Part shown: positions 28,969 to 45,255 of the stretch, piece by piece
How the letters are laid out: each line of letters begins with the position of its first letter
Numbering within the stretch: the stretch's first letter is position 1
DNA from: Arcobacteraceae bacterium
Lineage (GTDB): Bacteria; Campylobacterota; Campylobacteria; Campylobacterales; Arcobacteraceae
Reading direction: 5' to 3'
DNA length: 63,359 bases
Assembly: GCA_029939245.1 (NCBI GenBank)
Contig: JAOZTH010000001.1
Location: forward strand, 1-63,359
Notes under the pieces: model-generated
The model's input: the letters and a program-made list of their open reading frames with translations, nothing else
What the model was told of the DNA's origin: nothing
The model's database searches: none
Made by a program: the position numbers and the translations under genes

Positions 28969-28971
28969 TAT

Positions 28972-29682: not shown

Positions 29683-29691
29683 TGATATAAT
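29683..29691 (+). promoter_or_regulatory. Candidate extended -10 (TGaTATAAT) upstream of the giant lipoprotein operon
   Basis: tgatataat lies 18 nt upstream of the ATG at 29709, and the AAAGGAGA RBS sits at 29697-29704. No transcript data. Confidence 0.35.
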
Positions 29692-29708
29692 ACATAAAAG
29701 GAGAAATT

Positions 29709-32700
29709 ATGAAAAATATTTTTAGATTAAAATCCATATGGTTGGCAATACTTTTGTTACTATTTTTATCTGGTTGTGAGATAGGCAATATCAAAACAGC
29801 TACCACTATAGAAGGGCGAGTAGCCAAAGGGGCGGTATCAGGTGCTGTGGTGACGGCATACAAGGCTGGCACAACAGAGAAAATAGGCACTGCTACTACA
29901 GATGTCAATGGATATTATGAGCTATATAGCGATCTATTTTATGATGGAGTAGTATATATAGAATCTGTTGGTGGGACATATACAGATGAGCTTACCAATA
30001 CACCAAACAAAGATGCCGGTCTGTTTAGCTTGACAGCATTGTCAAAAGTAGGAACAAATGATGGATATGTTGTAAACATCACACCATATTCTACCATATC
30101 ACACAAAAAAATGCTAAATGATGGAGAAGATATAACATCTGGAGCTGTTGTGACAAAATACAACAAAGCTATATCAGATATATTTGTAGGCAATAGCTTT
30201 GATATCACTAAAACTACACCAAACTTACACAATGATCCTACAGATGATAGTTTAGATTCTGCAGATGCAGAAGAATACGGCTTTATGTTGAAAGCATTTG
30301 TAGATATGACAGCTTCAAATGAAGCAAATGTAGATGCCAAGATAGATTCCATAGCAGGAGCTATCACTAGTGTAGAAAACATGACTATCACAGATGCTAT
30401 GGCAGATGAGATCATAGCATCGTTTGCAAAACCTGCAGTTCAGACAGAGATGACATCTGGTGAGATAGCGGATATAAACAAAACTATCAACGATGCGAGA
30501 GACATAAAGCTACCAGATATCAGCGGTTCTTTAGCTACGATAACTGGAGAGTATAACACTACTATAGCAACATGGACACCAGTATTGGCTGCTACAGGTG
30601 GGATATTGGATAGATGTGAGATATCTCCCGATATTACTGCAAGCTATGGTCTTGAGTTTAACACTACAACATGTGTAATATCTGGCAAACCTAATAAGCA
30701 AGGTGCAGATACATTTGCTATAACTCCAGTTAATTTCAAAGGAAAAGGAAAATTCTTTCGGTTGAGCTTGGATATAAATGCTTCGGACCAAGCGGCATTT
30801 TCACTTGATGGACCTGTGGTATTTGAAGAAAATGCCACAAACTATATCCAGACAACAGTAGGTGGAAGCTGTGGAGTTGGTGGAACATACAAGTTTGAGT
30901 TAAACGATACTGCAGTAGCTAGCATAGTGGTAGCTACTGGCGAGATAGATTTCAAAGCACCTGGCTCTATAGAGGTCAAGGCGACTCTGAGCTGTGCCCA
31001 ATACAATGATATCAACGCTACTAAAACAATAACAGTCCATGAAGTAGCTCCAAATATAACCAACAGTATAGTAAATATAAGAGGTAAGCTACGAGAAAAT
31101 ATAAGTTGGGAAGTAAATAACACTGGAGGCAGTATAGCTAGTTGTGCTATAACTCCTAGTGTTGGGACATATGGACTTGATTTTAATCTAACCACATGTG
31201 AGATATCTGGTATCCCAACATCTACAGAACTAAGAGCAGCAGGTGCCAATATACAGATAACTGCTACAGGATCTGCAGGTGGCAATAGTGTCAAGACGAT
31301 AAACCTAAAGATAGACAAAGCAACACAAAAACCACCTGTAAGTATAGGTCCAAACCAACCATGCACCACTGGAGAAAGATTTCGGCTAGTTGCCACAGGT
31401 GGCAACAGCACAGTAGTAGGATATGGCTATGTCTCAAGTCATCCACTCATAGCAGCAGTAGATGCTAGTGGTTGGGTAGATTGTCTCACAAATGGTGAAG
31501 CAAATATCACTGCTACAAGGACAGGCGATGTAAATCATATTGACAGCGAGGACAACTATACAGTAAGTGTAGGTCTAGTTCCGCCAAATATCAACAACCC
31601 TCAAACTACTACGGGTATATATGGACAAACAATCAACTGGGAAGTCAACAACACAGGTGGACTTATAGAAAGCTGTGTGATAAGCCCATCTGACTTAACC
31701 ACAAAATATGGTCTAGTATTTAGCCAGACTGATTGTAATATCACAGGTGTACCCACAGCAACAACTGTCGGTGATGTGTCATTTACTATAAAAGCGGTCA
31801 CAGCTACTAGAGGCAACAGCACCAAAAATATACATATAATCATAGACAAGGAAGAGCAAAATCCATATGGATTTGATACAAATCTCACTTTGACGGTAGG
31901 ACAAATAAGTCCAAAACAACTTGACCATATAGGTAATACAACTGTCGCATCAACATATACTAGTGAAGATGAAACTATAGCGATAGTCAATATAAACTCA
32001 GGAGCTATCACCAACACATTGAAAGCTGGCAATGTAACTATAGTCGCTAGAAATGTAGGCGACACAAACTTCAAGTCAATAGATGCAAACTATACATTGA
32101 CAGTCTTGGCAACAGACCCAAATATCACAAGTCCTTTTGATATAGCTACTGACTACAACAAAACAATCAGCACAAACTGGGTGCCAAACAGCTCTACAGG
32201 TGGAGCTATAGAAACCTGTGAGATATTGCCGTTATTTGCAGCAAACAGTGGTATGGAATTTAACACTACTACATGTGAGATAAGCGGAACTCCACTATAT
32301 GTAGACGAAGGTGGAACTCCATATACAATCACAGCGAAAAATAAAGCCGGAGCAGGTAGCGATACAGCGGTGGTAAATATAACTATAGCCAAAGCAACAC
32401 AAGCTGAACTCATCATACCTATAGCACATGTCACAGATACTTTAGCAGATGGTTGGCACAAACAAAATATCACAGGTGGCACTGGCACTGGCAATATCAC
32501 ATTTACAGGCACGATACCAAGTGTAATAGATGTCAACAGAACCACAGGAAATGTCACATATAGTGCCACTATTGCAAACACAGAGATCACAGTCTTGAAA
32601 GCTAGTGATAATTTCTACAAAGAGATATCAAAGAAATATAGGTTAACCGTAGGAGATTTCAAGCCAGAGATTGGTGCATCTGTAGCTACGATAGTAGCAT

Positions 32701-34136
32701 TGTATGGCGAAGCTAACTCAACCATGTGGCAAGCCAAAAACGATGGAGGCGACACAACTGTGCCATATACATCTCTAGATACACTTCCTGGTGGCTTGAC
32801 TATAAGTGCTAGTGGTGTGATAGGTGGCATACCTACAGCAGTGCAGGGTGTTAGCTCATATACTATAGTGGCGAAAAATGATTCTGGCAATGATACCTTT
32901 GATGTGCAAATTATAGTAAACAAAGGAAGTCAAAATCTATTTAGATTTACAGATGGCGACAGACAAGGCAACAAAGGCACAGGCTATACATATGAAGTCA
33001 ACAATACCCAATCAGACGGAGCATTGACATATAGTTCAAGCGATATTAGCAAGGCAGAAGTGACAGATGTGGGAGTAGTGACTATAAAATCAGATGCAAC
33101 TCCTGGCAATGTAACTATAATCGCTCACAATGTTGGCAATACAAACTTCGACAAAGCAGATACAAACTACACTTTACAAGTAGTGGATGTAGCACCAGAT
33201 ATCACAGGAGCTTTAGCTCCGTTGGTAGCAAGTTTCAATGAAGTCGTGAGCTATGAGCTCAATAATACAGGAGGCACCGTGACTGCTTGTGCTGTTTCTA
33301 GTGGAACTTTGCCAGCTACATTGACTATAGCCCCTACGGCAGATGGTAGCACATGTGTGATCACTGGCACAGTGTCAGAGGTAAAAGGATTGTTTAACTA
33401 TACATTCCAAGCACAAAATAGTGCAGGAGACGCTAGCACAAAAGAGCTAGAGATCACTACTATAAAAGCAGATCAAACTGGCTTTACAATATATGGTGAC
33501 CAAGAGATTGCCAAAACTATAACAGACTTTAGACAAGCAGCAACAGGCGGTAATACAACCGTGCCTATAATATACACTTCTAGCAACGACACTATAGCAC
33601 AAGTAGATGCGACCGGTTTGATAATACCTCACATAGCAGGAGACGTCAATATAACTGGCACAAGACCAGGTGGTGCAAGCCCAGCTACCGCAAACTACAA
33701 CGATATAAACGATAGTTATCAGTTAACCATATTGGATACTGTATTTCCTATCGTTGACTATATATTATCTACACCGGGAAACACTACAACAGATGCAAAT
33801 GCTACAGGAAACATAACTATAGTTTGGAGCGAACCAGTCAGAAAAGTAGATGGCAAAAATATTGAGATACGAAGCAAAGGTGCGACAGGACATACAAAAG
33901 GTTTCAGCACTACTTTGCTCACTATAAATGGCGAGACAAATGTGACTTTATCTATGGGGACTGGACATCTGAGTTATGGCGAGGAGTATTATGTCGTCAT
34001 AGAGGCAGGTGGCTTTGAAGATATGGCAGGCAATGACAATGTGGCACATGGAGGAGATGGGACGTGGAATTTCACTGTGCCAACACAGACTGGCGATTGT
34101 GCCTATGATTGTATAGACAATTGTGATAATTATTAA
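29709..34136 (+). CDS. Giant surface lipoprotein 1. Order: CarboxypepD_reg-like N-module, about 6 x (He_PIG-like + Big_2-like) Ig domains, Big_5/SbsA-like domain, Cys-rich tail.
   Basis: 1475 aa with lipobox LLFLSGC, then IEGRVAKGAVSGAVVTAYKAG…TDVNGYYEL. The recurring modules are …W(E/D)VNNTGG.I.SC.I.P…GL.FN.TTC.ISG.P… and …(S/T)S.D.TIA.V…G.V…G.V.ITA…. It ends GDCAYDCIDNCDNY. Confidence 0.85.
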   Translation: MKNIFRLKSIWLAILLLLFLSGCEIGNIKTATTIEGRVAKGAVSGAVVTAYKAGTTEKIGTATTDVNGYYELYSDLFYDGVVYIESVGGTYTDELTNTPNKDAGLFSLTALSKVGTNDGYVVNITPYSTISHKKMLNDGEDITSGAVVTKYNKAISDIFVGNSFDITKTTPNLHNDPTDDSLDSADAEEYGFMLKAFVDMTASNEANVDAKIDSIAGAITSVENMTITDAMADEIIASFAKPAVQTEMTSGEIADINKTINDARDIKLPDISGSLATITGEYNTTIATWTPVLAATGGILDRCEISPDITASYGLEFNTTTCVISGKPNKQGADTFAITPVNFKGKGKFFRLSLDINASDQAAFSLDGPVVFEENATNYIQTTVGGSCGVGGTYKFELNDTAVASIVVATGEIDFKAPGSIEVKATLSCAQYNDINATKTITVHEVAPNITNSIVNIRGKLRENISWEVNNTGGSIASCAITPSVGTYGLDFNLTTCEISGIPTSTELRAAGANIQITATGSAGGNSVKTINLKIDKATQKPPVSIGPNQPCTTGERFRLVATGGNSTVVGYGYVSSHPLIAAVDASGWVDCLTNGEANITATRTGDVNHIDSEDNYTVSVGLVPPNINNPQTTTGIYGQTINWEVNNTGGLIESCVISPSDLTTKYGLVFSQTDCNITGVPTATTVGDVSFTIKAVTATRGNSTKNIHIIIDKEEQNPYGFDTNLTLTVGQISPKQLDHIGNTTVASTYTSEDETIAIVNINSGAITNTLKAGNVTIVARNVGDTNFKSIDANYTLTVLATDPNITSPFDIATDYNKTISTNWVPNSSTGGAIETCEILPLFAANSGMEFNTTTCEISGTPLYVDEGGTPYTITAKNKAGAGSDTAVVNITIAKATQAELIIPIAHVTDTLADGWHKQNITGGTGTGNITFTGTIPSVIDVNRTTGNVTYSATIANTEITVLKASDNFYKEISKKYRLTVGDFKPEIGASVATIVALYGEANSTMWQAKNDGGDTTVPYTSLDTLPGGLTISASGVIGGIPTAVQGVSSYTIVAKNDSGNDTFDVQIIVNKGSQNLFRFTDGDRQGNKGTGYTYEVNNTQSDGALTYSSSDISKAEVTDVGVVTIKSDATPGNVTIIAHNVGNTNFDKADTNYTLQVVDVAPDITGALAPLVASFNEVVSYELNNTGGTVTACAVSSGTLPATLTIAPTADGSTCVITGTVSEVKGLFNYTFQAQNSAGDASTKELEITTIKADQTGFTIYGDQEIAKTITDFRQAATGGNTTVPIIYTSSNDTIAQVDATGLIIPHIAGDVNITGTRPGGASPATANYNDINDSYQLTILDTVFPIVDYILSTPGNTTTDANATGNITIVWSEPVRKVDGKNIEIRSKGATGHTKGFSTTLLTINGETNVTLSMGTGHLSYGEEYYVVIEAGGFEDMAGNDNVAHGGDGTWNFTVPTQTGDCAYDCIDNCDNY

Positions 34137-34146
34137 GGAGAAAAAG

Positions 34147-37100
34147 ATGAAAAAGATAATAAAAAATTTTATACTTGTAGCACCAATGCTATTGGTATTG
34201 TTTACTGGTTGCGGAGAAAAAGGAACCGAAGGAGCTATAACTACTGGCATGGTTATAGAAGGACGAGTAGCAAAAGGCTCTATAGATGGTGCGACAGTAG
34301 AAGCATATAGGACAGATACTGAAGAGTCTATAGGTTCTAGCACTACAGATAGTCAAGGATACTACAAGATAAATACTTCATTGAATTATACCGGAGTAGT
34401 TAGATTGACATCAAATGGTGGTAGCTTTTTGGATGAACAAACAGGAAACAAACTTGATGCTAGTGCTTTTGAGCTTCAAGCGGCATCATACACTCCTGGT
34501 GAAAGTCTCAAGACCATCAATATTACGCCATTTTCCACTGTATCGTATAAAAAACTACTAGCAGATGGCAGAGACAAAACTTCACAAGAAGTTATTACTA
34601 AATACAACAAAGCCATAGCAGAGATATTTGTAGGAAATAAAGATATAGAGATAACAGATTTAAATCCAAACATTTCAAATGACTCAAGCGACAACCACTT
34701 AACTAGTGAAGACCAAAAAAATTATGGTGCGGTGTTGGCTATATTTTCAAATATGATACTAAATGTCCCAGGTTTGGCAACTACAGAGATAGACAATATG
34801 GTAGATAAAATATCAAATATAGAGTATGCGACTATAGACAGGGAATTAGCCACACATATACAGCAATATGTAGCTGGAGTCAATACTACAAATGAAGATA
34901 TAAACAGTAGCAGAGATGATGTCAATGCCAGTATAGAAAAAGCAGTATTCTCTCTAGTGCCAGATATAAGTCGTTCGGAAGTAAATCTTGACTACAATAT
35001 AGACGAAAATAGCACAAAAATATCGTGGATACCTACTACAAAAGAAGAAAATATCACAAGATGTGTCTTGAGCCCTAGTGGTGTAGTTATAGCAGACTAC
35101 AACCTAAGTTTCAACCCTATCACATGTGAAATATCTGGCGAACCAAATGCTACTCATAGTGGTGCCGATATAATCATAGTGCCATCAAATCCTAGAGGCG
35201 ATGGCACACCATTTCGTCTAAATTTCAAGATAGATAGGATAGTTCAAGTTCCGATCGTATTTGACCCTGACAATAAAACTGATTTTAATATCACAGATGC
35301 TAACTTTGATTTTGATATAACAGGCGGAACTTGTGCTCATGTATCTACTACGAGATTTACTTCTAGCGATACAACAATAGCAGAAGTAAATGCCACTACA
35401 GGAGAAGTCAATGTGACTGCAACTGGCACATTTACTCTCACCGCTACAAAAACTTGCAGCGAGGATTATCTAGCAGAAGAGGTATCAAAAGATATGACAG
35501 TGCTACAGATAATACCAAACATAACTACAAGTATGGATATAAATGCAACTCTATCTCAAGTGATGGCTTGGAATGTGAATAATACAGGTGGTTCTATAGA
35601 TAGTTGTGTTATAGATACAAATATAAAAGCGCTTTATAACCTTGATTTCAATCAAACAACATGTGCTATAACAGGAGAGCCAAATGCTACAAATATACCA
35701 GGTGGCATAGATGTCACTATCACTGCTACAAATACACGAAGCATAAGTGCTGAAGTTATCCATCTGCTTATAAACAATGCACCAAATATAAACAATCCAC
35801 AAATCACCACAGGTATATACAATCAACCTGTGGTATGGGATGTGAACAATACAGGCACAAGCACAGGAGCTATAACAAGCTGTGAGATAACGCCAAATAC
35901 ATTAAAAGCAGACTACGATCTCGACTTTAGTCAAACAACATGTCAAATCACAGGTGAAGCAAACAGGACAACTGCAGGCGACAACAGCTACACTATCACA
36001 GCTAAGAACTCATCTGGCAATAGCACTAAAAATATCAATATAGTTATAGACAGATCGCCACAAGACCCGATACTATTTGACCCAGATACAAAAGATGAGT
36101 TCAATCTAACCGATGCGGATTTTGACTTTGATATAACTGGCGGAAACTGTAGTCATGTAGAAACAGTTGTATTTGGTTCAAGCAACACAACTATAGCAGA
36201 TGTCAATATTACTACAGGAGTAGTAGATATAAAAAATATCGGCGACTTTAATCTAACAGCGACAAAAACTTGTAGTGAAAACTATCTACCTACTTCTGTA
36301 TCGAAACCTATGGTTGTCCACAATGTCATACCAGATATAACCAACGACAACAATATCACTACAGAATACAATGCCACTATAGTTGCATGGACTCCATCAA
36401 ATACAGGTGGAGTTATAACTGGATGTAGATTAGACCAAGATATACACAATATGTATGGTCTAGACTTCAACAACACTACATGTGCTATATCAGGCGAGTC
36501 AAATGCAACAATACCAGGCGGTATTAATGTGGGAGTTATAGCTAGCAATGCTATAAACGATAGCAACAGAATTGTGTTGAACTTGATTATAAATAAAGCT
36601 ATTCAAAATCCTATAGTAAATATGACAAACAGCAATGCCAACTGCTTCAAAGGAACATCACCAACAATACACAAAGATGCTACAGGCGGGAGTAGTTTGT
36701 TTGATTATAACTATACATCCAACGATTTAACCACAGCTACAGTTGACCCTGTTACTGGTATAGTCAGCTGTGTAGAGTTTGGCGAGGCAAATATCACTGC
36801 TACAAAAGCTGAAGATGACAATTGGCTTGCAAGTAGCCACTATTATACTATAGTTGTATCAAACAATACTCCAAATATAGACAATCCACAAAATACCACA
36901 GGAGTATACAATGAACCAGTTGTGTGGGATGTCAACAACAGCGGTGCCGATGTAGGACCGATAGAAAGCTGTGAAATATCTCCTAACACTTTGAAAGCTA
37001 CATACAATCTAGACTTTAATCAATCAACATGTCAGATCACTGGTGTACCAAATGCCTCAACTGCAGGAGATAGCACATGGACTATAAAAGCTATGAATAC

Positions 37101-39432
37101 CACAGGAAATAGCACAAAAAATATAAATATAGTTATAGAAAAAACACTTCAAAATCCATTTGGTTTTGACAACAACCTAACAGTACACAAATATGGTATC
37201 GGCTCAAATGCACTTGACCATATAGGCAACGGCACAGGAGCTATAGAATTCAAAAGTTTGGATGAGGATTTTGCGGTAGTTGATATTAACTCAGGAAATA
37301 TAACCCAAGCAAAAGCTATAGGAGCAGTGCTGATACAAGCTATCAAAAAAACCAGCACAAACTTCAAAGAGATCAATGCTACATATACTTTGACTATCAT
37401 AGATGCTGACCCAAATATAACTACACCAAACAATATATCTATAGAATACAACGAAACATTTAGCTGGATGCCAGACAAGATAAACAGCGGAGAGATAGAT
37501 GACTGTGCCATACTGCCTGTATTTGCAGCAAACAGTGGACTAGAGATAAACAACACGACATGTGAGATATCTGGTGCTCCGCTTTTTGTAAATGAAAGTG
37601 GGACAGAACATACTATAACCGCTACAAACAAAGCAGGAGTTGGTGTAGATACTACGATAGTAGATATAGTCGTAGCAAAAGCAGAACAACAAGCACTTAT
37701 AATACCACAGTCATTTATCGGCGATATTATGAGTGATATAGGACACCAGCAAGTCATCACTGGAGGAAGTGGCGATGGAAATATCACATTTAGCAGTGCG
37801 GCATCGCCTACATTTATAGACCTAAACACAACTTCAGGAAATGTAACATACAGAAGCCCATTTGACAACAACAAAACTATCATCATCACAAAAGCTGGAA
37901 ATAACTTCTATGAGCCAAAGCAAGCTAGCTACAAGTTTGTAGTAGGTGATTTTATACCAAACCTATCTGGCTCCACAGCGGCAACAAGTGGAAAATTTGA
38001 TGAACTAAATACAAGTATTTGGCAACCAATAAATACAGGTGGTGATCCTTCTTATGATTACACTACAAATCCAGCTTTACCTGCTGGCTTGACTATACAT
38101 GCAACTACAGGTGTCATAGGCGGTACACCGCAAAGTGCACAAAACTCTACACCATACGAGGTAAATGCTACAAATGCATCTGGCACATCTTTGTTTACGG
38201 TTAACATAACTATAAATAAAATTCCTCAACCAAACTTTAGATTTAATGACGGCAACAGAACCAGCGAATTAGGAACTAGCTTTGAATACAATGTTACAAA
38301 TATAGATGTACCTACTGGCACTCTCACATATACCACAAGCGACCCTACATATGCATTGGTCACAAATACTGGAGAAGTCACTATAAATGACAACGATGTC
38401 AGAGGCAATGTAACTATAACTGCGAGAAATCAAGGTGATGGAAACTACAGTGATACATTAACAACATATATTATAGAAGTTGTTCAAAAAAGACCTGATA
38501 TAGCAAATCCTATGGTCATAGAAGAGCTAAATGCAACATATATGCAGACAATCCCAACCTTTGAGTTTAACAACACAGGCGGGCCAGCTACTAGCTGTAT
38601 AGCAGTCGGTGATAGTTTGCCTGATGGCTTGGAAGTAAATGCTACAGCTGGTGGTAACTGTGTTATCACGGGTACACCAACTGAAGCAAAAGCAGATCAA
38701 ATATATACTATACGAGCTATAGGTGAGTTTAACAACGAGAGCACCAAAGAGATACACGTATTTGTAGACAAGGCACATCAAACTGAGTTTGACATAGTAG
38801 ATGTAGACAAATACCTTGAGTCTACTGTGTTGGATTTCAACAGAACTGGATATGACGGAAATACATCTTTGAATATACAATATACATCAAGCAATACAAC
38901 TATAGCACTAGTAGGAGCGATCACTGGCGTGATAACACCAAAAACAACTGGCAATGTGACTATAACTGCAGTAAAACCAGGAAATGCTAGCTTCTATGAT
39001 GCAAATGCTAGTTATAGGTTGATTGTGGAAGATACTCTAAGACCAGTGGTTGATTATACAATATCCACTCCAACAGATGATGAAGTAGATGTAAACGGCA
39101 CGGCAAACTTGGTCATAGTATGGAATGATAATGTATCTATAAATGATGGCAGAACTATACGAATAAGAAGCGATGGCGATACCAACCTCACAATAACATA
39201 CAGCACAACAGATTTGGTCATGGTAGATGATAGAAATATGACATTGAATTTGGGTAGCTCACACTTAAGTTATGGAGAGGAACATTATGTCTATATAGAA
39301 TCCAACTCTGTTGTTGACAGCGGTGGAAATGTAAACGAAGCAGTAGATGACCAAACTAGCTGGAACTTTACTGTGCCATCTAACAGTGGTCCTTGTGAGT
39401 TAGATTGTGTGGATAATTGTGACAATTATTAG
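34147..39432 (+). CDS. Giant surface lipoprotein 2 (paralog of 29709..34136, with more Ig modules)
   Basis: About 1761 aa from ATG 34147 (RBS AAGGAGA at 34135-34141), with lipobox LVLFTGC. It has the same N-module, the same alternating Ig modules and a Big_5-like domain. It ends GPCELDCVDNCDNY. Confidence 0.85.
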   Translation: MKKIIKNFILVAPMLLVLFTGCGEKGTEGAITTGMVIEGRVAKGSIDGATVEAYRTDTEESIGSSTTDSQGYYKINTSLNYTGVVRLTSNGGSFLDEQTGNKLDASAFELQAASYTPGESLKTINITPFSTVSYKKLLADGRDKTSQEVITKYNKAIAEIFVGNKDIEITDLNPNISNDSSDNHLTSEDQKNYGAVLAIFSNMILNVPGLATTEIDNMVDKISNIEYATIDRELATHIQQYVAGVNTTNEDINSSRDDVNASIEKAVFSLVPDISRSEVNLDYNIDENSTKISWIPTTKEENITRCVLSPSGVVIADYNLSFNPITCEISGEPNATHSGADIIIVPSNPRGDGTPFRLNFKIDRIVQVPIVFDPDNKTDFNITDANFDFDITGGTCAHVSTTRFTSSDTTIAEVNATTGEVNVTATGTFTLTATKTCSEDYLAEEVSKDMTVLQIIPNITTSMDINATLSQVMAWNVNNTGGSIDSCVIDTNIKALYNLDFNQTTCAITGEPNATNIPGGIDVTITATNTRSISAEVIHLLINNAPNINNPQITTGIYNQPVVWDVNNTGTSTGAITSCEITPNTLKADYDLDFSQTTCQITGEANRTTAGDNSYTITAKNSSGNSTKNINIVIDRSPQDPILFDPDTKDEFNLTDADFDFDITGGNCSHVETVVFGSSNTTIADVNITTGVVDIKNIGDFNLTATKTCSENYLPTSVSKPMVVHNVIPDITNDNNITTEYNATIVAWTPSNTGGVITGCRLDQDIHNMYGLDFNNTTCAISGESNATIPGGINVGVIASNAINDSNRIVLNLIINKAIQNPIVNMTNSNANCFKGTSPTIHKDATGGSSLFDYNYTSNDLTTATVDPVTGIVSCVEFGEANITATKAEDDNWLASSHYYTIVVSNNTPNIDNPQNTTGVYNEPVVWDVNNSGADVGPIESCEISPNTLKATYNLDFNQSTCQITGVPNASTAGDSTWTIKAMNTTGNSTKNINIVIEKTLQNPFGFDNNLTVHKYGIGSNALDHIGNGTGAIEFKSLDEDFAVVDINSGNITQAKAIGAVLIQAIKKTSTNFKEINATYTLTIIDADPNITTPNNISIEYNETFSWMPDKINSGEIDDCAILPVFAANSGLEINNTTCEISGAPLFVNESGTEHTITATNKAGVGVDTTIVDIVVAKAEQQALIIPQSFIGDIMSDIGHQQVITGGSGDGNITFSSAASPTFIDLNTTSGNVTYRSPFDNNKTIIITKAGNNFYEPKQASYKFVVGDFIPNLSGSTAATSGKFDELNTSIWQPINTGGDPSYDYTTNPALPAGLTIHATTGVIGGTPQSAQNSTPYEVNATNASGTSLFTVNITINKIPQPNFRFNDGNRTSELGTSFEYNVTNIDVPTGTLTYTTSDPTYALVTNTGEVTINDNDVRGNVTITARNQGDGNYSDTLTTYIIEVVQKRPDIANPMVIEELNATYMQTIPTFEFNNTGGPATSCIAVGDSLPDGLEVNATAGGNCVITGTPTEAKADQIYTIRAIGEFNNESTKEIHVFVDKAHQTEFDIVDVDKYLESTVLDFNRTGYDGNTSLNIQYTSSNTTIALVGAITGVITPKTTGNVTITAVKPGNASFYDANASYRLIVEDTLRPVVDYTISTPTDDEVDVNGTANLVIVWNDNVSINDGRTIRIRSDGDTNLTITYSTTDLVMVDDRNMTLNLGSSHLSYGEEHYVYIESNSVVDSGGNVNEAVDDQTSWNFTVPSNSGPCELDCVDNCDNY

Positions 39433-39492: not shown

Positions 39493-39527
39493 GGCACAGA
39501 ACAGTGAGTTTAACTCAAAAGGAAAAT

Positions 39528-40403
39528 ATGAAAAACTCTGTAGTGTTGCCATTTGTGCTTATGTTTGTGATGTCGTTTTCTATGCTTGTGATAAATTTTG
39601 TAGATGATACTAGCCATATCATAGAGCAAAATCCATACCAAGACATAATCATATCAAATACTGCAATAAACTCTATCAAGACAACTATAGTGACAGCTCT
39701 AGCACCATATAGCAAAGTTCCAGATGAAGAGGTGCTAGCTATGCTAGCAAGTATAACAATAACAGATAATAAAAATATGATGACGATGTCAGTAGATATC
39801 CAAAAAGCCCCCATGCTTATAGATATCAATCATATGTTTGTATATGACAAAATTTTTAAACAATGGAAACTCAAAGAAAGCATAAGAGCTTGGCTGTTGG
39901 ATGCATTGAGCTTGAGGTTTGAATTAAATGAACCATACTACCTCATAATGCTACTTGAAAACACTTTAAATCACAACAGTGAGATAGTTTCAGAAAACTT
40001 TAGATATAATGAAGGAAAAATATATAGTTTGAAACATTTTTACAAAACTGTGGATTATTATAAATATTTTACAAGTGATGATATGATAGATAAAATACAA
40101 TTTGAAAATATGTTTAGTTTTGATGATACAAATGAGACAATGTATTGTGACGATATGACAGAAACTATATCTAAGCTAGTATCAGATGAGTATGATACAG
40201 ATGATTCTGGGATAGATTGCGAGAGTCCTACAGCTAGCGTCAAGAAAAAATTAGATAGTTTAGGTATAATAAGCGGAAATGATAAAACTTCACAAAAGGT
40301 CATAGGGACAGTGAGTTTCACATCAAACAGCAAAGTAAAAGTAGCAAACTTTGCGTATGATTTTACAAAAAAGGAGATAGTAAGTTTTGATATTCGGTTC
40401 TAA
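39528..40403 (+). CDS. Membrane-anchored protein of unknown family; first gene of the T2SS-like operon (possible GspK-type analog)
   Basis: ATG 39528 lies behind the RBS AAAAGGAAAA. An N-terminal hydrophobic segment (NSVVLPFVLMFVMSFSMLVINFV) is followed by about 265 aa that includes an acidic patch. No conserved motif recognised. Confidence 0.5.
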   Translation: MKNSVVLPFVLMFVMSFSMLVINFVDDTSHIIEQNPYQDIIISNTAINSIKTTIVTALAPYSKVPDEEVLAMLASITITDNKNMMTMSVDIQKAPMLIDINHMFVYDKIFKQWKLKESIRAWLLDALSLRFELNEPYYLIMLLENTLNHNSEIVSENFRYNEGKIYSLKHFYKTVDYYKYFTSDDMIDKIQFENMFSFDDTNETMYCDDMTETISKLVSDEYDTDDSGIDCESPTASVKKKLDSLGIISGNDKTSQKVIGTVSFTSNSKVKVANFAYDFTKKEIVSFDIRF

Positions 40404-41229
40404 TACAAACAGCCAAGATCACTTTTTTTTGGATAAAAGCACCAAAGAGTTTGCAACCCACCATGTCAATGTTATTCTTTCTCCTAGTTTTTATTGGACC
40501 AAACTACAAGAACTGCCAGTGCTTACGGTATATGGTGCACGAGAATATTCTACTTCTGTATTTGAAGGTTTATTACCAGAGGGCAACTGGACATATTTTG
40601 TGCAAAAAGAGGACAAAAATCTATATAGATTTTTTGCTTTTGATCAAGATGAGCTTTTGGATTTTATAGAATCTATAGGTGGCGACAAACAATATGTTCG
40701 CTCTTTGTATTTTGCACAAAATGAGTTTTCTGATATATTAGATGAAGAGCAAACAAAATTTGTATCAATAAATGATGATAAATGTATGACAAAAGTTCAA
40801 GACACTTTAGTATTGATCCCCAAAACTATGGTATCAAATAGCGAATATATATACGATGTCATAAACGATGTATCCCTATCAAGCAATAATATAAAAATAG
40901 ATACCAACATAAGTATAAATACAGATATATTTATGGTATTTGTAGTTGTGGGGCTGATATTTTCGCTTGGGTTTATCATAAATATAATAACCTACAATAT
41001 TGAAATTGCAAAACTAGAAAACAAGACAATAGAAAAAATCAAAACTCTCAAGCTACCAGAAACATCGTTTGAGTTAGATGCTATAGCCACACAAAGTTCT
41101 GCAAAGATAAAAGACCAGATAAATATAAGAAAAAATATCAAACAAATAAGCACCATAAAAACGACACAATATGGAAAAATAAAAAAAATAAAAATAACAA
41201 AAGATAAGTTGTCTGTATATGACAAATAA
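40387..41229 (+). CDS. gspL: GspL-like assembly-platform protein (bitopic)
   Basis: 280 aa. The N-terminal cytoplasmic region (VILSPSFYWTKLQELPVL…AREYSTSVFEGLLPEG…YRFFAFDQDEL) resembles the GspL consensus. It has a single central TM (IFMVFVVVGLIFSLGFIINII) and a short C-domain. Confidence 0.45.
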   Translation: MIFGSNTNSQDHFFLDKSTKEFATHHVNVILSPSFYWTKLQELPVLTVYGAREYSTSVFEGLLPEGNWTYFVQKEDKNLYRFFAFDQDELLDFIESIGGDKQYVRSLYFAQNEFSDILDEEQTKFVSINDDKCMTKVQDTLVLIPKTMVSNSEYIYDVINDVSLSSNNIKIDTNISINTDIFMVFVVVGLIFSLGFIINIITYNIEIAKLENKTIEKIKTLKLPETSFELDAIATQSSAKIKDQINIRKNIKQISTIKTTQYGKIKKIKITKDKLSVYDK

Positions 41230-41605
41230 AAATAAAAATTATCTACTCATAGCTTTTGTAGTTGGCTTTGTGTTGCTGTTTGTAACAACAAACAAATATG
41301 AAACTAAAAAAGATGAAGCTATAGCAAGATACACCAAGATGCAAAAAATACTTTCTGATATTGAACAAAATAAAGATAAGTTTACATATGAAAAAACCAA
41401 GGCTATCTTAAACTCTTCTATATTTAAGCAATATATTCAAACACGAACAAAAGACAACTTGACTACTATAGTATTTAATGCTCCTTTGAAAGTGGCAAAT
41501 GCTTTCATACGAAAAATCGCAAATTCGGATTCGTTGCTTGGTGAAATAGAGATACAACAGATTGACAAAAGAGTCAAAATCATAATCAGGATAAAAAATG
41601 GATAA
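41219..41605 (+). CDS. gspM: GspM-like small bitopic protein
   Basis: 128 aa with an N-terminal TM and a C-terminal alpha/beta region (…TTIVFNAPLKVANAFIRKI…VKIIIRIK). Its position after the GspL-like gene supports the call. Confidence 0.4.
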   Translation: MTNKNKNYLLIAFVVGFVLLFVTTNKYETKKDEAIARYTKMQKILSDIEQNKDKFTYEKTKAILNSSIFKQYIQTRTKDNLTTIVFNAPLKVANAFIRKIANSDSLLGEIEIQQIDKRVKIIIRIKNG

Positions 41606-42182
41606 TATAAAAGCTATTTTGTCGCTGGTTGCAAGCAGGATAAAAGGACTGGAAAGTCTACAAATAGGCTCTGGAGTTAAGCTGTTGATATACAGCTTTT
41701 TGACTCTGTTTTTTATAGTTTTTTTATCTCCCAAAAAACAGCTATATTTTTATCTTGAGGAAAAACTACAGACAAATAATATCATAATATACCAAGAAAA
41801 GATAGAATCGCTAAACACAGGAATATGGCTAAAAGATGGGCTAGTCTCTTATGATAAAATATTTATAGGATTGTTTAGCGATATCACTATAAATACATAC
41901 TACTTCAAAACAAATCTTATAGTCCATAGCTTTTTGATAGACAAAGATTTTGAAACCTTTGTGCCATCGCAAGTAGAGAAAATAGAGTTGTCTCATAGTT
42001 TTTTGAGTCCGTTAAATGTGCTTATAGAAGCAAAAGGAGAGTTTGGAGAGCTGACTGGAAGTTATGATTTTATAAGCAGCAAACTCACATTAAATCTAAA
42101 ACCAAGCGATATAATGAAGACAAAAAAAGCATCCCTAAAGCTTATGACAAAAACAAAAGATGGATATATATATGAGAAATAG
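41598..42182 (+). CDS. GspN-like bitopic protein (tentative)
   Basis: 194 aa with one TM (LLIYSFLTLFFIVFLS). Assigned mainly from position between the M-like and C-like genes. Confidence 0.3.
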   Translation: MDNIKAILSLVASRIKGLESLQIGSGVKLLIYSFLTLFFIVFLSPKKQLYFYLEEKLQTNNIIIYQEKIESLNTGIWLKDGLVSYDKIFIGLFSDITINTYYFKTNLIVHSFLIDKDFETFVPSQVEKIELSHSFLSPLNVLIEAKGEFGELTGSYDFISSKLTLNLKPSDIMKTKKASLKLMTKTKDGYIYEK

Positions 42183-42951
42183 AGGTTTGTTGGCAAATAG
42201 CATGTTGATTGTAGCTTTGATATATCTTGTTATGTCTATTCTCAAGATATTTTTACCTATATCATCTGTAGAACTACAAAAAGATATTGATTTTAATTTT
42301 GCATTTAACTACTCTTTACAAAATATCTATAAAGATAAAATAAAGAAAAAAGATAGTCAAAACAGATCTAGTATGAGTTTTGAGCTCATAGGAATATATA
42401 GTGATGGAAACAATAGTGTAGTCATCATAAGCAAAGACAAAAGAACGGAAGTCATAGCTGTAGGTGAAGTGTTTGAAGGCTTTAAGCTAACTGGCACTAC
42501 AAGTATATTGGCAATATGGGACAAAAATGGTATAAGACATGAGCTATCTATAGAAGACACTAGAGACAGAGAGATAAGGAATTCTTATAAAATAGAAAAT
42601 GAAGATCCTCTAGCAACTAGAGATATAAAATACACAGATATACAGTATTATAAAAATAATCCACAGAAACTATGGGATGAAATAAATATAAATAAAACAA
42701 AAAATGGCTATATGATTACTAAGATAAAGAAAAATTCCAAACTTTCTACATTGGGATTGAAAAATGGTGATATCATAAAAGTAGTAAATGGCAAAGAGCT
42801 TATAAATGATAGTGATGCTATAAAACTCTACAAAGATATAAAGAGTGCAGAGTTTGTCACTATCACAGTGCTAAGAGATGATAAATATATAGATATAGAT
42901 TTTAATATAAAAGGAACACAAACGATGACACAGCCACCAAAATTACAATAA
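42160..42951 (+). CDS. gspC: GspC-like protein (TM + HR-like domain + PDZ)
   Basis: 263 aa. An N-terminal TM is followed by FELIGIYSDGNNSVVIISKDKRTEVIAVGEVFEGFKLTG (HR-like) and a PDZ-like region, GYMITKIKKNSKLSTLGLKNGDIIKVVNGKEL. Confidence 0.6.
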   Translation: MDIYMRNRGLLANSMLIVALIYLVMSILKIFLPISSVELQKDIDFNFAFNYSLQNIYKDKIKKKDSQNRSSMSFELIGIYSDGNNSVVIISKDKRTEVIAVGEVFEGFKLTGTTSILAIWDKNGIRHELSIEDTRDREIRNSYKIENEDPLATRDIKYTDIQYYKNNPQKLWDEININKTKNGYMITKIKKNSKLSTLGLKNGDIIKVVNGKELINDSDAIKLYKDIKSAEFVTITVLRDDKYIDIDFNIKGTQTMTQPPKLQ

Positions 42952-43056: not shown

Positions 43057-45255
43057 ATGAACAAGATACTTAAAATTTTGATAACGCTTATGTTGATGAG
43101 TGTATCTTTGTCTAGTAGAGACACAGTAGATATAAACTTCAAGGGTCTAAACATAAGAGATTTTGTAAAAATGGTAGCAAAAATCAAAAATGAAAATATC
43201 CTAATAGGCAACAAACTAAGCGGTAGTATAAACTTTATATCGGTCAAGCCAATACCAAAAAAATCACTCATGGTGTTGCTCAACCATGTATTGGAAACCA
43301 AAGGCTTCACGCTGATTCGTACTGGACATAGATATCTAAAAGTTGTCAAGATTGAAGATGCAGGCAGGTCTGGACTGCCTGTAAATACTACACAAGATAC
43401 TTTTCAAATAGTTACAGAGATTATTGAAGTAGATGGTATGAATGTGGATTTGCTTGTGACTAAACTAAGACACCTAGTAACCAAAAACTCAAAAATAACT
43501 ACTTCAAAAGAGACAAATGCATTGATAGTCACGGATTATCCAGAGAAAATCAAAAGTATAAAAAAGATTATAAACCTACTAGCTAGCAAAAGTCAGCTTA
43601 AAACAAAAGTGATAAGACTAGAACATATAAAAGCAGATGTGATAGGTCCAGATATACAGAAGATCACGAAAAATTTATTTGACCCAAAAATAGCCAAAAA
43701 CAACTTAGATATCATCATCAACAACAAGACAAATACTATAACTCTTGTAGGACGGCAAACACAGATAGACAAAGTAGCCGAGCTTATACACAATGCCGAC
43801 AATCAAGATGACAAATCATCTATAGTCATGGAAGTAATACCTATCAACAATAGTAGTGCCGAAGAGATGATAAAAATTTTGGAAAAATTTTATGCTACAA
43901 AAGGCAAAAATGTAGTATATCAGCCTAGCTTTATGAATGACAAAGAGCTCAACTCCGTCATAGTTCGTGCTAGAAAAAGAGATATAGATGATATACGAGA
44001 TGTTATCTCAAAGCTAGATATACCAAAACCACAAGTGTTTGTAAAGGCAAGGATAATAGAGATATCCGATGAAAAAGCTAGTGATATAGGATTTAAATAT
44101 GGTTTGAGTGGTGGCAAGGTAACTAGCGATGGACTCATGACCATGAGTGCAAATATGGGCGGACAAGCTATTGCGGTAGATAGTACGCTTATGAGTTATA
44201 TAGATATAGATACAAACTTGAAAGATTTTTTTGCACTTGGAGCTACATTGTCGTTGTTGCAAAGAGATGGAGCAGCTGAAGTGCTAAGCGAACCGTCACT
44301 GCTTTGTCTAAATAACAAAGAGTCAGAGATATATGTAGGAAATACCCAATCAGTCGTAACCTCTACAGCACAAGGCACTACTAGCACATCTGATACTACA
44401 AACAGCTACAAAAGAGAAGATATAGGACTAACCCTCAAGATAAAGCCACGACTCTCAAGCGACAATAAAGTCACACTTGAAGTAGAGACTATCATAGAAG
44501 ATGTGCTAGGATCAGACAGCAACGGACAGCCCATAACCACCAAAAGAACAGTCAAAACTACTGCCATAGTAAATGATGCAGAACTAGTCATGCTAGGTGG
44601 TCTAAACAAGACAAAAGAGACCACAAGTGTATCAAAAGTTCCTTTGTTGGGTGATATACCACTACTTGGAGCATTGTTTAGAAGCACAAATAAAACCATG
44701 TCAAAAACATCTTTAGCTATCATGCTAACTCCGTATATTATAGACGAAAACAGAAACATAAGTAAACTAAGAAATGATTTGAATATGTTAGCATTAGCTC
44801 AAGATGACTACACCACTAAAGCTATGGCTATACTTGACAATGGAGATGTGCGAGAAGTTAGACTAGAAAATAGAAAAGCCAAAAATACAAAAAATACAAA
44901 TACAAAACCAAAAAACTTCATAAAACGAACAAGCCCGCAAGCACAGCAAAGGTATTACAATAACCAAAAAACCTACAAAAAGAAAAAAATCAAGACAAAA
45001 AAAACTCAAAAAAAATCATATGGAGGCAAATATAATATATATGTAGGTAAGTATTTTAGCTTTAGTGAGATTAAAGAGATAAGAAATGATAAGACAATAA
45101 ATACAAACACAGATATGAAACTAAACTATGATGGTAAAAATGTATTTGAAGTTAGTGTTGGTCCATATAGGACTATGAAAAAAACTAAAAAAGTATTGAA
45201 GTATATCAAAAAGAAATACAACGATGATGCCTATATAGAAGATAAAACAAAATAG
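43057..45255 (+). CDS. gspD: Secretin (GspD family) with a Lys-rich linker and a C-terminal SPOR-like domain
   Basis: 732 aa. It has a signal peptide, N0 (DINFKGLNIRDFVKMVA…), N1-N3 repeats and a secretin core (VFVKARIIEISDEKASDIGF… VPLLGDIPLLGALFRS). The tail carries YNIYVGKYFSFSEIKEI…FEVSVGPYRTMKKTKKVLKYIKKKYNDDAYI. Confidence 0.9.
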   Translation: MNKILKILITLMLMSVSLSSRDTVDINFKGLNIRDFVKMVAKIKNENILIGNKLSGSINFISVKPIPKKSLMVLLNHVLETKGFTLIRTGHRYLKVVKIEDAGRSGLPVNTTQDTFQIVTEIIEVDGMNVDLLVTKLRHLVTKNSKITTSKETNALIVTDYPEKIKSIKKIINLLASKSQLKTKVIRLEHIKADVIGPDIQKITKNLFDPKIAKNNLDIIINNKTNTITLVGRQTQIDKVAELIHNADNQDDKSSIVMEVIPINNSSAEEMIKILEKFYATKGKNVVYQPSFMNDKELNSVIVRARKRDIDDIRDVISKLDIPKPQVFVKARIIEISDEKASDIGFKYGLSGGKVTSDGLMTMSANMGGQAIAVDSTLMSYIDIDTNLKDFFALGATLSLLQRDGAAEVLSEPSLLCLNNKESEIYVGNTQSVVTSTAQGTTSTSDTTNSYKREDIGLTLKIKPRLSSDNKVTLEVETIIEDVLGSDSNGQPITTKRTVKTTAIVNDAELVMLGGLNKTKETTSVSKVPLLGDIPLLGALFRSTNKTMSKTSLAIMLTPYIIDENRNISKLRNDLNMLALAQDDYTTKAMAILDNGDVREVRLENRKAKNTKNTNTKPKNFIKRTSPQAQQRYYNNQKTYKKKKIKTKKTQKKSYGGKYNIYVGKYFSFSEIKEIRNDKTINTNTDMKLNYDGKNVFEVSVGPYRTMKKTKKVLKYIKKKYNDDAYIEDKTK

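Follow-up and report, generated by a model that had tools for sequence, protein, structure and literature searches.

The window analysed here is a complete contig of 63,359 nucleotides from an uncultured organism of a deep-sea hydrothermal vent, which is known from metagenomes only and whose nearest named relatives are Arcobacteraceae, with a DnaE identity of only 62–66%. A near-identical contig, reached via ParA, is present in assembly GCA_029940435.1.

Two Giant Lipoproteins and Their Modules

Two giant genes on the forward strand, encoding protein 1 (1475 aa, 29709..34136) and protein 2 (1761 aa, 34147..39432), are the first of a co-directional block that runs into a type II secretion system (T2SS). 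The start of protein 2 is most likely the ATG at 34147 and not the GTG at 34123, and the resulting length of 1761 aa is that of the database gene call P0001. Protein 1 begins with a signal peptide and lipobox (LSGC), followed by about 250 residues free of sequons; beyond this region, He_PIG-like and Big_2-like beta-sandwich modules alternate, and the C-terminus consists of an Ig-like domain and a Cys-rich tail, ...GDCAYDCIDNCDNY. Protein 2 is a paralogue of protein 1 (46% identity) with a similar architecture, more numerous modules, a lipobox FTGC, and the tail ...GPCELDCVDNCDNY. The Cys-rich C-terminal tail is conserved in all four orthologues.

The lipobox was assigned by the pattern [LVI][ASTVI][GAS]C after an N-terminal signal peptide. 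The lipobox region ends with ...LLLLFLSGC in protein 1 and ...LLVLFTGC in protein 2, and with FSGC and LVGC in the orthologues P0002 and P0003. By this pattern-based assignment, both proteins are predicted to be bacterial lipoproteins that reach the periplasmic side of the inner membrane.

The two kinds of module named in the original prediction were both recognized by Pfam above the gathering score. He_PIG (PF05345) was found in four stretches of each protein, with scores of 84.6 and 83 bits (cut-off 24), and Big_2 (PF02368) scored 28.9 and 56.8 bits (cut-off 22.8); a search of both proteins against NCBIfam gave no match. The AlphaFold model of one module pair (pLDDT 91.3) consists of two beta-sandwiches, in agreement with membership in these families, and its nearest PDB structures are cadherin EC pairs and the cadherin-like modules of SraP (Foldseek TMq 0.64 against the SraP modules). 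Between the modules, the linker motif [D/A]-P-N-I-T-x-P is found repeatedly. The repeats have not led to an artefact of assembly, since independent per-run assemblies reproduce the 9.9-kb lipoprotein region, with no differences in run X1 and with 12 SNPs and no indels in run X2.

Gene Neighbourhood

Between the lipoprotein genes and gspC lie four forward-strand ORFs of 299, 280, 128, and 194 aa (39504..42182), which have no family match, NCBIfam included. The related locus L001 has these genes in an equivalent position, and they may encode divergent parts of the T2SS inner-membrane platform. The remaining genes of the block are also on the forward strand. The GspC-like protein (42160..42951) has a C-terminal PDZ domain (PDZ_2), and in NCBIfam it is most similar to GspC models, with scores under the cut-off in every case. 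It is followed by the type II secretin GspD (43057..45255), with N0, three Secretin_N, and Secretin domains, and by a GspF-like platform protein (45256..46479), for which the T2SSF domain was found in the 407-aa orthologue from L001. Two small ORFs of 129 and 174 aa (46479..47389) have no family match and are read as putative pseudopilins from their type IV pilin-like hydrophobic N-termini. The GspE-like secretion ATPase (47386..48900), with T2SSE in the 504-aa orthologue from L001, precedes the last gene of the block, which encodes a sugar-phosphate mutase of the phosphoglucomutase/phosphomannomutase family (48900..50288). With regard to the assembly and flipping of lipid-linked oligosaccharides (pglA, C, D, E, F, H, I, J, K or equivalents), the window offers only this mutase, and its homologues immediately adjoin pglB in the Campylobacterales loci L080 and L043. 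The order of the lipoproteins, the four ORFs, gspC-D-F, the pseudopilin candidates, and gspE is kept in L001, and on the basis of this gene order proteins 1 and 2 are candidate cargo of the T2SS.

Excess of the Extended Sequon

The acceptor motif of PglB substrates is D/E-X-N-X-S/T, where X is not Pro (PMC9816155, PMC6478998, PMC6025236). Under this definition, protein 1 has 26 computed sites and protein 2 has 44, which exceeds the earlier estimate by hand of about 25 and about 35–40; every sequon string quoted with that estimate is present in the computed list. The number expected by chance from 5000 residue shuffles was 2.3 ± 1.5 (maximum 10) for protein 1 and 4.1 ± 2.0 (maximum 12) for protein 2, so that the observed sites lie about tenfold above chance (z = 16 and z = 20, respectively). 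The N-X-S/T sites without an acidic residue at −2 number 23 in protein 1 and 41 in protein 2 (where 44 of the 85 N-X-S/T sites have the acidic residue), approximately as the shuffles predict, which indicates that the excess of N-X-S/T is confined to the acidic, PglB-type class. The residue at −2 is D or E in 52% of the N-X-S/T sites in proteins 1 and 2, compared with 10% (12 of 115) in the other 46 ORFs of the window, the subtilase described below being left out, where the value equals composition. All three comparisons, with shuffled sequences, with plain N-X-S/T, and with the other proteins of the window, bear out the expectation that the extended sequon is far more frequent than composition would give.

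The excess is also specific to direction and register. Each protein has just two copies of the mirror motif S/T-X-N-X-D/E. With the acidic residue at −1, the count is 4 in each protein, and with it at −3, the count is 1 in protein 1 and 10 in protein 2. The association between D/E at −2 and S/T at +2 of Asn is significant by Fisher's test (p = 5e-8 for protein 1 and 3e-11 for protein 2), and Thr predominates over Ser at +2, with ratios of 24:2 and 35:9. From residue 250 to the C-terminus, the density of sequons is about 2–2.5 per 100 residues.

The distribution of the sequons over the modules was determined from 20 aligned module pairs. Three recurrent positions are filled in 9, 9, and 12 modules, and the statement that each He_PIG-like module carries two conserved sequons was therefore too strong. 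Of the 88 sequons that the alignment contains, these three columns hold 30, which means that a part of the count is due to duplication, and the rest are spread across about 30 more columns, approximately 36 altogether. The sites lie in loops and strands alike; in the modelled module pair, two of the six are within beta-strands.

The recurrent columns bear on the explanation that the motif is a structural by-product, that is, a signature of the fold or of Ca2+/metal binding that was amplified by module duplication and is not glycosylated. The polar alternation of a beta-sandwich (i, i+2, i+4) or the Asp/Asn-rich Ca2+ motifs of cadherin-like domains could produce such a signature, and the nearest solved structures include Ca2+-dependent cadherin EC pairs; the repeated linker motif likewise has an appearance of this kind, and because of its Pro at −1 it was not counted as a sequon. 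Against this explanation, the mirror motif, which has an equal polarity pattern and composition, is 13–22 times rarer than the sequon, and the sequons extend over some 36 columns in both loops and strands. The results for other proteins and for the orthologues, given in the following two sections, bear further on this point.

Background Level and Other Sequon-Rich Proteins

The background was determined from 1,286 ORFs in 158 pglB loci of Campylobacterales, where the mean is about 0.10 sites per 100 aa and the 99th percentile is 0.74. Proteins 1 and 2, with 1.8 and 2.5 sites per 100 aa, have 17–25 times this background. Only one of the 1,286 ORFs has at least 10 sites. It encodes a secreted protein of 1,322 aa in locus L069, which is unrelated to proteins 1 and 2, lies 2 kb from pglB, and has 30 sites compared with 3.1 ± 1.7 in shuffles, while the mirror motif occurs once; no Pfam family matches it, and no T2SS is located nearby.

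A third sequon-rich lipoprotein is encoded at the end of the window on the reverse strand (61078..63359). It is an S8 protease of the subtilisin type that has a cadherin-like region at its N-terminus, a P-domain, and the lipobox ..ILVGC, and its reading frame is open to the contig end. An acidic residue is found at −2 in 8 of its 11 N-X-S/T sites. Its presence on the same contig is of interest with regard to the shielding from proteases considered below.

These proteins also bear on whether the motif is read by a machinery other than PglB, such as a different enzyme acting on Asn, a chaperone of the lectin type, or a T2SS receptor for secretion or sorting. The four ORFs without a family that separate the lipoprotein genes from those of the T2SS, and the unexplained Cys-rich tail conserved in all four orthologues, could belong to such a machinery. 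However, the unrelated sequon-rich protein in L069 adjoins pglB with no T2SS near it, and the sites in proteins 1 and 2 match the PglB rule in all respects tested, in that the residue at −2 is acidic, Pro is absent from −1 and +1, and Thr outnumbers Ser. To our knowledge, no machinery other than PglB reads D/E-X-N-X-S/T, and we regard this explanation as highly improbable.

Retention and Turnover of Sequons in Orthologues

Proteins 1 and 2 have orthologues in a related genome. That of protein 2, P0002 (78% identity), keeps 37 of the 44 sites, whereas about 21 would be expected from independent conservation of the residue classes (p = 5e-7). The key positions of the sequons are 86% identical between protein 2 and P0002, and 91–98% conserved by residue class, compared with 76% for the flanking X positions, which change at the background rate. 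P0003, with 60% identity to protein 1, keeps 15 of 26 sites compared with about 7 expected (p = 8e-4); five sites are newly gained, and some are shifted by two residues. The single key positions of protein 1 and P0003 are no more conserved than the background. The total number of sites stays within 20–26 in the family of protein 1 and 41–44 in that of protein 2 across both species.

Distant He_PIG/Big_2 homologues (P0004–P0008) carry only 0–1 extended sequons, and judged from these sequences the dense loading is specific to the lineage of proteins 1 and 2. The same homologues speak against the structural by-product, as do the sliding of sequons by two residues between orthologues, their appearance at new positions, and the equal bias in two other folds, those of the subtilase and of the L069 protein without a Pfam family. 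With the rarity of the mirror motif and the spread over columns, these results led us to reject the cadherin-type Ca2+ motif as the explanation, and we consider a by-product of the fold very unlikely in general. The mirror motif, the retention and turnover in orthologues, and the background of 1,286 ORFs agree with the view of the original prediction that the acidic residue at −2 reflects selection instead of an N/T-rich composition.

Location of pglB

Neither pglB nor any other pgl gene was found on the complete 63-kb contig. Two ORFs of the window, of 705 and 684 aa, were considered as PglB because of their size and were rejected, as they have no STT3 match.

Among 160 pglB loci, L058 is the only one that has the tetranucleotide signature of the window (r = 0.95; all others ≤0.88). 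Its PglB is intact, with all three PglB Pfam domains present, and it keeps WWDYG, DxD, TIxE, and MxxI, as well as the Arg that corresponds to R331 of C. lari. An enzyme in which this Arg is conserved need not follow the −2 rule (PMC4894442). The genes that flank pglB in L058 are alaS and pldA, with no other pgl gene beside it, so that the remaining pgl genes would be located elsewhere in the genome.

The metagenome runs X1 and X2 contain 99% and 97%, respectively, of the words that make up the window, and each also yields one contig of 7,061 bp that is colinear with alaS-pglB-pldA-pheA and about 81% identical to L058. The depth of this contig in the runs X1 to X4 is 32, 18, 5.9, and 5.4, and that of the window contigs is 27, 12–14.5, about 10, and about 5. 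The pglB contig is thus linked to the window by depth, with values that differ by 18–40%, and by tetranucleotide signature, and not by physical linkage. Overall, this evidence, which is indirect, favours a host genome that carries pglB elsewhere than on the contig.

A profile search of genome contigs with the PglB alignment returned at least 80 loci, and the JAOZMC and JAPOGY assemblies were not among the matches listed. A metagenome search with the L058 PglB recovered the same contig at 100% identity and everything else at ≤53%. A protein database search with the C. jejuni PglB, whose sequence was checked against PDB entries 5ogl, 3rce, and 3aag, showed only Campylobacter sequences among the at least 120 matches listed. 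The search for representative PglBs returned 150 diverse sequences, and one of the ten that were named is from an 'Arcobacter sp.' MAG. In cultured Arcobacteraceae, pgl genes are often absent. Two reports describe PglBs of vent Campylobacterota as active and an acidic residue at −2 as preferred by most PglBs (PMC6025236, PMC4894442).

The absence of pglB from the contig, and of the related assemblies from the pglB matches listed, would be expected if the sequons were of PglB type by origin and now largely unoccupied or disused, either because pglB was lost or because only a few loop sites are modified. Several sequons in predicted strands, and the background-level conservation of the key positions between protein 1 and P0003, can be read in the same way. 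However, a relic would decay to the background of 10–16% D/E, whereas the number of sites is upheld in both species by gain and retention, and the key positions of protein 2 and P0002 are more conserved than the X positions. In addition, the depth of the pglB contig co-varies with that of the window in four metagenomes, and the strand sites are not excluded from modification because Sec substrates meet PglB unfolded. Disuse of the sequons is accordingly an explanation that we regard as unlikely, although it deserves more weight than a by-product of the fold.

Proposed Mechanism and Significance

The reading that we favour, and hold to be reasonably probable, is that proteins 1 and 2 are lipoproteins of a vent member of the Campylobacterales which head a T2SS block, are selected for dense PglB sequons, and are glycosylated. 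The cadherin-like (He_PIG) and Big_2 beta-sandwiches, which alternate, would together form a rod. Both proteins would leave the cytoplasm unfolded through Sec and receive their lipid on the periplasmic side of the inner membrane, where a PglB encoded elsewhere in the genome would transfer a lipid-linked glycan to many of the sequon Asn residues. Sequons in strands are poorly modified by known PglB in a folded protein; the loop sites could thus be modified after folding as well, and the strand sites only before it. The glycan-coated rod would then be moved to the cell surface, probably via the adjacent T2SS, where the coat may shield it from proteases, stabilize the protein, or form an adhesive or contact surface. 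The occurrence of pglB in the host genome, the occupancy of the sites, the extent of glycosylation, the route to and display at the surface, and the role of the coat are what we infer. Since the sequons are about ten times as numerous as by chance and as in any known PglB target, it is probable that no other bacterial protein predicted so far is as heavily N-glycosylated as proteins 1 and 2.

More tentatively, hyper-N-glycosylated giant envelope proteins may constitute a distinct class in some PglB-bearing Campylobacterales, a possibility to which we give rather less than even weight. Such a class would have at least two origins on unrelated folds, the He_PIG/Big_2 lipoproteins and the L069 protein, and its members in the vent lineage would be cargo of a divergent T2SS dedicated to them, which would make the locus the first pairing of PglB glycoproteins with a T2SS. 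Selection would act on the density of sequons and not on fixed sites, as in viral glycan shields, so that sequons are kept, slid, and replaced, and the products would be N-linked 'mucin-like' coats of bacteria.

Bacterial glycoengineering has PglB-type N-glycosylation as its model system, and the biological purpose of this modification is under debate. If the favoured reading is true, bacteria can use N-glycans as a dense coat, and protection from proteases, heat, or phages at vents becomes testable. The modules would then provide a natural catalogue of the sequon contexts that one fold tolerates, and PglB biology would reach a deep uncultured branch near Arcobacteraceae. Proteins 1 and 2 also offer ready-made multi-sequon scaffolds for glycoconjugates, and scanning for sequon density is an inexpensive means of detecting PglB 'super-substrates' in metagenomes.

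Comparison with Known Systems

Proteins 1 and 2 resemble the known PglB substrates CmeA/AcrA, CgpA, and PEB3 of Campylobacter and HgpA of H. pullorum, which are Sec-exported and periplasmic or membrane-anchored, many of them being lipoproteins. The glycoproteomes comprise 46 glycopeptides from 35 proteins in C. hepaticus and 53 glycoproteins in C. jejuni (PMC9816155, PMC6478998). Unlike the known substrates, with about 1–3 sites each, the present proteins have 26 and 44 sites with predicted glycosylation. They share tandem beta-sandwiches with giant cadherin-like, He_PIG, and Big_2 adhesins, including SraP and the distant homologues described above, and differ from these repeat adhesin homologues in sequon load.

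PulA of Klebsiella, SslE of E. coli, and MtrC/OmcA of Shewanella are lipoproteins brought to the surface by a T2SS, to which their genes are adjacent or on which they depend. Proteins 1 and 2 are similarly encoded beside a T2SS, on which their dependence is suggested by gene order alone. We know of none of these lipoproteins that is N-glycosylated or sequon-rich.

Archaeal S-layer proteins and other AglB substrates are likewise surface proteins with many N-glycans, here predicted, which are thought to be stabilizing in extreme environments (PMC2952790). They differ in being archaeal, in that N-X-S/T suffices for AglB, and in having neither He_PIG/Big_2 lipoprotein rods nor a link to a T2SS.

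HMW1 of H. influenzae, with about 31 glycosylated sites, leaves the cell by two-partner secretion and is modified by HMW1C, which, unlike the enzyme proposed here, is cytoplasmic and adds single hexoses at plain N-X-S/T. As a giant surface protein with dozens of N-glycan sites, which are predicted in the present case, HMW1 is similar to proteins 1 and 2 (PMC6025236). The acidic residue at −2 points to a periplasmic enzyme of the PglB type rather than one of the HMW1C type.

Sequon Excess in the Two Lipoproteins

The two giant lipoproteins are encoded by adjacent ORFs in the same direction, protein 1 at 29709-34136 (+ strand; 1475 aa; N-terminus MKNIFRLKSIWLAILLLLFLSGC) and protein 2 at 34147-39432 (+ strand; 1761 aa; MKKIIKNFILVAPMLLVLFTGC), where ATG 34147 was preferred as the start of protein 2 because the resulting length equals that of the database gene call P0001. 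Both carry a lipoprotein signal peptide with a lipobox, and they are paralogues with 46% identity.

The sequon pattern of both proteins is confirmed and highly non-random. The original prediction regarded them as saturated with the extended sequon D/E-X-N-X-S/T (X not Pro), and the computed counts bear this out. Protein 1 has 26 such sites versus 2.3±1.5 (maximum 10) in 5000 residue shuffles, and protein 2 has 44 versus 4.1±2.0 (maximum 12), far above what composition gives. The totals of N-X-S/T are 49 (shuffles, 22.6) and 85 (shuffles, 36.4); the sites without D/E-X in front, 23 and 41, are at about the chance level, which indicates that the surplus belongs wholly to the acidic class. The mirror motif S/T-X-N-X-D/E occurs only twice in each protein, 13-22 times more rarely than the sequon despite the equal composition and i/i+2/i+4 polarity pattern. 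D/E is found at −1 in 4 cases in each protein, and at −3 in 1 and 10 cases in proteins 1 and 2, respectively. Asn residues preceded by D/E at −2 tend to have S/T in the +2 position (Fisher p = 5e-8 for protein 1 and 3e-11 for protein 2), where Thr is favored over Ser beyond composition (24:2 and 35:9). A site with Pro at −1 is not accepted by PglB, the oligosaccharyltransferase of the STT3 family. Such sites fall into two types, the linker D-P-N-I-T and E-P-N-A-T directly after C-x-I-S-G, and at one of them an S/P swap between orthologues turns the sequon on or off.

Placement of the Sequons and Module Structure

The first approximately 250 residues of both proteins (29709-30460 and 34147-34900) contain 2 and 6 plain N-X-S/T, respectively, and no extended sequon; from residue 253-257 on, sequons are evenly spread at 2-3 per 100 aa. 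It seems that the membrane-proximal part is kept glycan-free. After this region, He_PIG-like and Big_2-like modules alternate and are followed by a C-terminal Ig-like domain; in Pfam, four stretches per protein matched He_PIG at 83-85 bits, and Big_2 was also matched. All four orthologues share a Cys-rich C-terminal end, G-[D/P]-C-x-x-D-C-[I/V]-D-N-C-D-N-Y-stop (34080-34133 and 39376-39429), which to our knowledge matches no sorting signal; possible roles are a knot held by metal or disulfides and a tag by which the neighboring secretion system recognizes the proteins.

The occupancy of recurrent sites was scored over 20 aligned module pairs. Three sites recur in the He_PIG-like modules: x-[D/E]-Y-N-x-T in the first hairpin (9 modules), W-[D/E]-V-N-N-[T/S]-G-G (9 modules), and L-[D/E]-[F/I]-N-x-[T/S]-T-C immediately preceding C-x-I-S-G-x-P (12 modules). 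Together, the aligned modules contain 88 sequons, scattered over approximately 36 columns, and the earlier description of two conserved sequons per He_PIG-like module is therefore too tidy; this scatter also indicates that the total is not merely three ancestral motifs multiplied by duplication. One module pair (residues 723-906 of protein 2) was modelled using AlphaFold with the 20 module pairs as the input alignment. The model has a mean pLDDT of 91.3 and consists of two beta-sandwiches, which among solved structures come closest to EC pairs of cadherins and to the cadherin-like modules of SraP, a staphylococcal adhesin. The model places four of the six sequon Asn residues in loops or turns and two inside strands.

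The repeats are not an assembly artefact, because the 9.9-kb region was recovered whole in independent per-run assemblies of two metagenomes, with 0 differences in one and, in the other, 12 SNPs, of which 9 are synonymous and all lie outside the sequons, and no indels.

Comparison with Other Proteins and Orthologues

The other 47 ORFs of the window (16,630 aa) contain 20 extended sequons, 8 of which are in an S8 subtilase alone. When the subtilase is left out, D/E stands at −2 in 12 of 115 N-X-S/T (10%), in agreement with composition (11.7% D+E), so that the predicted distinction from the remaining proteins is upheld. A second background was taken from the flanks of 158 pglB loci of other Campylobacterales (1,286 ORFs, 504,834 aa), where the mean is approximately 0.10 sequons per 100 aa, the 99th percentile is 0.74, and D/E is at −2 in 16%; the values for proteins 1 and 2 are 1.76 and 2.50.

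Just one other ORF among the 1,286 has at least 10 sites. It encodes a secreted protein of 1,322 aa in a Campylobacterales MAG (locus L069, 1920-5888, − strand), with 30 extended sequons among 41 N-X-S/T versus 3.1±1.7 in shuffles, and a single mirror motif. Neither Pfam nor NCBIfam gives a match for this protein, which also resembles neither protein 1 nor protein 2; pglB (7950-10136) is 2 kb away, and a GT4 glycosyltransferase is encoded nearby (12037-13083). The subtilase (61078-63359, − strand), cut by the contig end, has a cadherin-like N-terminal region and a P-domain, and D/E is at −2 in 8 of its 11 N-X-S/T, six of these within the first 190 residues. The reading frame runs on without a stop to the contig end; ahead of the listed GTG it shows a lipobox (..ILVGC GGKGGG), which makes the subtilase a third lipoprotein. 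These two proteins indicate that dense sequon loading recurs on unrelated folds and, where the gene surroundings can be seen, beside pglB. On a Sulfurimonas contig (L044, the same as L158), a lipoprotein of 674 aa (signal ...LLFIVGC; minus strand, 11185-13207 in reverse-complement coordinates) that is encoded near pglB has 6 extended sequons, or 0.89 per 100 aa, above the background 99th percentile.

The syntenic locus L001 (GCA_029934475.1) encodes orthologues of both proteins: P0002 (41 sequons) shares 78% identity with protein 2, and P0003 (20 sequons) shares 60% with protein 1. Between protein 2 and P0002, 37 of the 44 sites are retained at the aligned position versus approximately 21 expected from class conservation outside sequons (D/E 0.77, N 0.77, S/T 0.80; p = 5e-7); identity reaches 86% at the key positions, and the X positions, at 76%, are close to the background of 77%. 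Between protein 1 and P0003, 15 of 26 sites are retained (approximately 7 expected, p = 8e-4), P0003 gains five sites absent from protein 1, and some sites are shifted by two residues, as in GEVNVTA versus IDINTTG. Judged from these alignments, the turnover looks like selection for having sequons and not for particular residues. The distant He_PIG/Big_2 homologues P0004-P0008 have 0-1 extended sequons despite 20-34 N-X-S/T each.

Lineage and the Search for pglB

The window, which makes up one whole contig, is present in hydrothermal-vent metagenomes. Its RNR-beta clusters at ≥90% with MAG proteins labelled Campylobacteraceae, Epsilonproteobacteria or Campylobacterota bacterium, and its DnaE shares no more than 62-66% identity with the closest named sequences (Arcobacteraceae, Arcobacter sp., Campylobacterales MAGs), which indicates a deep uncultured branch of Campylobacterales. 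In a related contig (L002, 1-2789; GCA_029940435.1, JAPOGY010000113.1), ParA is identical to that of the window, the parA-dnaE interval has a 150-aa opposite-strand ORF in place of parB, and DnaE is 1130 aa versus 1177; this mismatch may be an assembly or gene-calling difference. Ordinary housekeeping RNAs of the window are an RNase P RNA (class A, 238 bits; 55133-55497, + strand) and adjacent tRNA-Met and tRNA-Gln (1161-1319, − strand).

No STT3/PglB homologue was found among the ORFs of the 63,359-bp window. A C. jejuni PglB query was checked against the PDB, diverse PglBs were aligned, and one genome per species was scanned, which gave at least 80 pglB loci from Sulfurimonas, Sulfurospirillum, Sulfuricurvum, Nitratifractor and several Arcobacteraceae MAGs; among the loci listed, none is from the two related assemblies. 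Of 160 pglB loci compared, only L058/L084, from the Guaymas Basin 'Epsilonproteobacteria bacterium B24_G6', have a window-like tetranucleotide signature (r = 0.95; all others ≤0.88), and the true relatives L001-L003 give 0.95-0.99. The L058 pglB stands alone between alaS and pldA-pheA. Its product has all three PglB Pfam domains, keeps DGYxFAEGARD, YYDTD, QTIxE, WWDYGY and MxxI, and retains the Arg equivalent to C. lari R331, the residue contacting the −2 acid.

Four metagenome runs (X1-X4) hold the window, and X1 and X2 each have one 7,061-bp contig colinear with alaS-pglB-pldA-pheA of L058 at approximately 81% nucleotide identity. The depths of this pglB variant in X1-X4 are 32.1, 18.2, 5.85 and 5.39, and those of the window's own contigs are 27.1, 12.1-14.5, ~9-18 and ~5, so that the two lie 18-40% apart. 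In X4, three pglB variants (L058 7000-11500) have depths of ~5, 62-71 and 260-350, and three window-related populations (window 18000-30000) have depths of ~5, 25-57 and 200-270; the two higher depth levels of the variants parallel those of the populations, and several co-existing species of the lineage appear to have their own pglB each. That pglB is core to the lineage and present in the window's population is supported indirectly, through coverage covariation and not through physical linkage.

Secretion Neighborhood

On the same strand 3' of protein 2 follow four ORFs (299, 280, 128 and 194 aa; 39504-42182, + strand), a GspC-like PDZ protein, the GspD secretin, GspF, two pseudopilin-like ORFs, GspE and a PGM/PMM-family mutase, and the gene order of this T2SS block is identical in L001. 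The four ORFs, kept there in order and size, have no match in Pfam or NCBIfam; a very divergent T2SS could have its missing GspL/M/K-like components here, or the four could encode accessory factors of the lipoproteins. Because other bacteria have lipoproteins that are encoded next to a T2SS and reach the surface through it, surface display of proteins 1 and 2 through the adjacent system would, by analogy, be reasonable. The mutase (48900-50288, + strand), which ends the block, has homologues at approximately 50-60% identity (tblastx) in two pglB loci: in L080 (10182-11510) it directly adjoins pglB (8001-10166), and in L043 (4428-5777) it lies approximately 2 kb from pglB (8001-10100). This hints that the mutase may help to supply the sugar precursors of the glycan.

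Interpretation and Known Systems

The best explanation is that proteins 1 and 2 are giant Sec-exported lipoprotein rods of a T2SS locus, selected for dense PglB-type N-glycosylation; site occupancy, the glycan structure, the route to the surface and the function of this glycosylation are what we infer. Full-text searches found no literature joining vent Campylobacterota with sequon-rich proteins. The D/E-X-N-X-S/T rule is established for Campylobacter PglB, as is the existence of active PglBs in vent bacteria; across PglB orthologues, an acidic −2 residue is preferred by most but not all (PMC9816155, PMC6025236, PMC4894442). For the −2 rule, the conserved Arg alone is insufficient (PMC4894442). 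N-glycans have been tied to proteome stability in C. jejuni (PMC6478998).

Known PglB substrates have very few sites each, in contrast to the 26 and 44 sites of proteins 1 and 2: in C. hepaticus, 46 glycopeptides came from 35 proteins, the upper end being three sequons, and for C. jejuni 53 glycoproteins are reported (PMC9816155, PMC6478998). We rate both proteins as predicted PglB glycoproteins whose site load is approximately tenfold the usual one, a feature that recurs convergently. Functionally, they come closest to archaeal S-layer glycoproteins and to HMW1 of Haemophilus, which likewise bears many N-glycans but is modified by a cytoplasmic enzyme at plain N-X-S/T.
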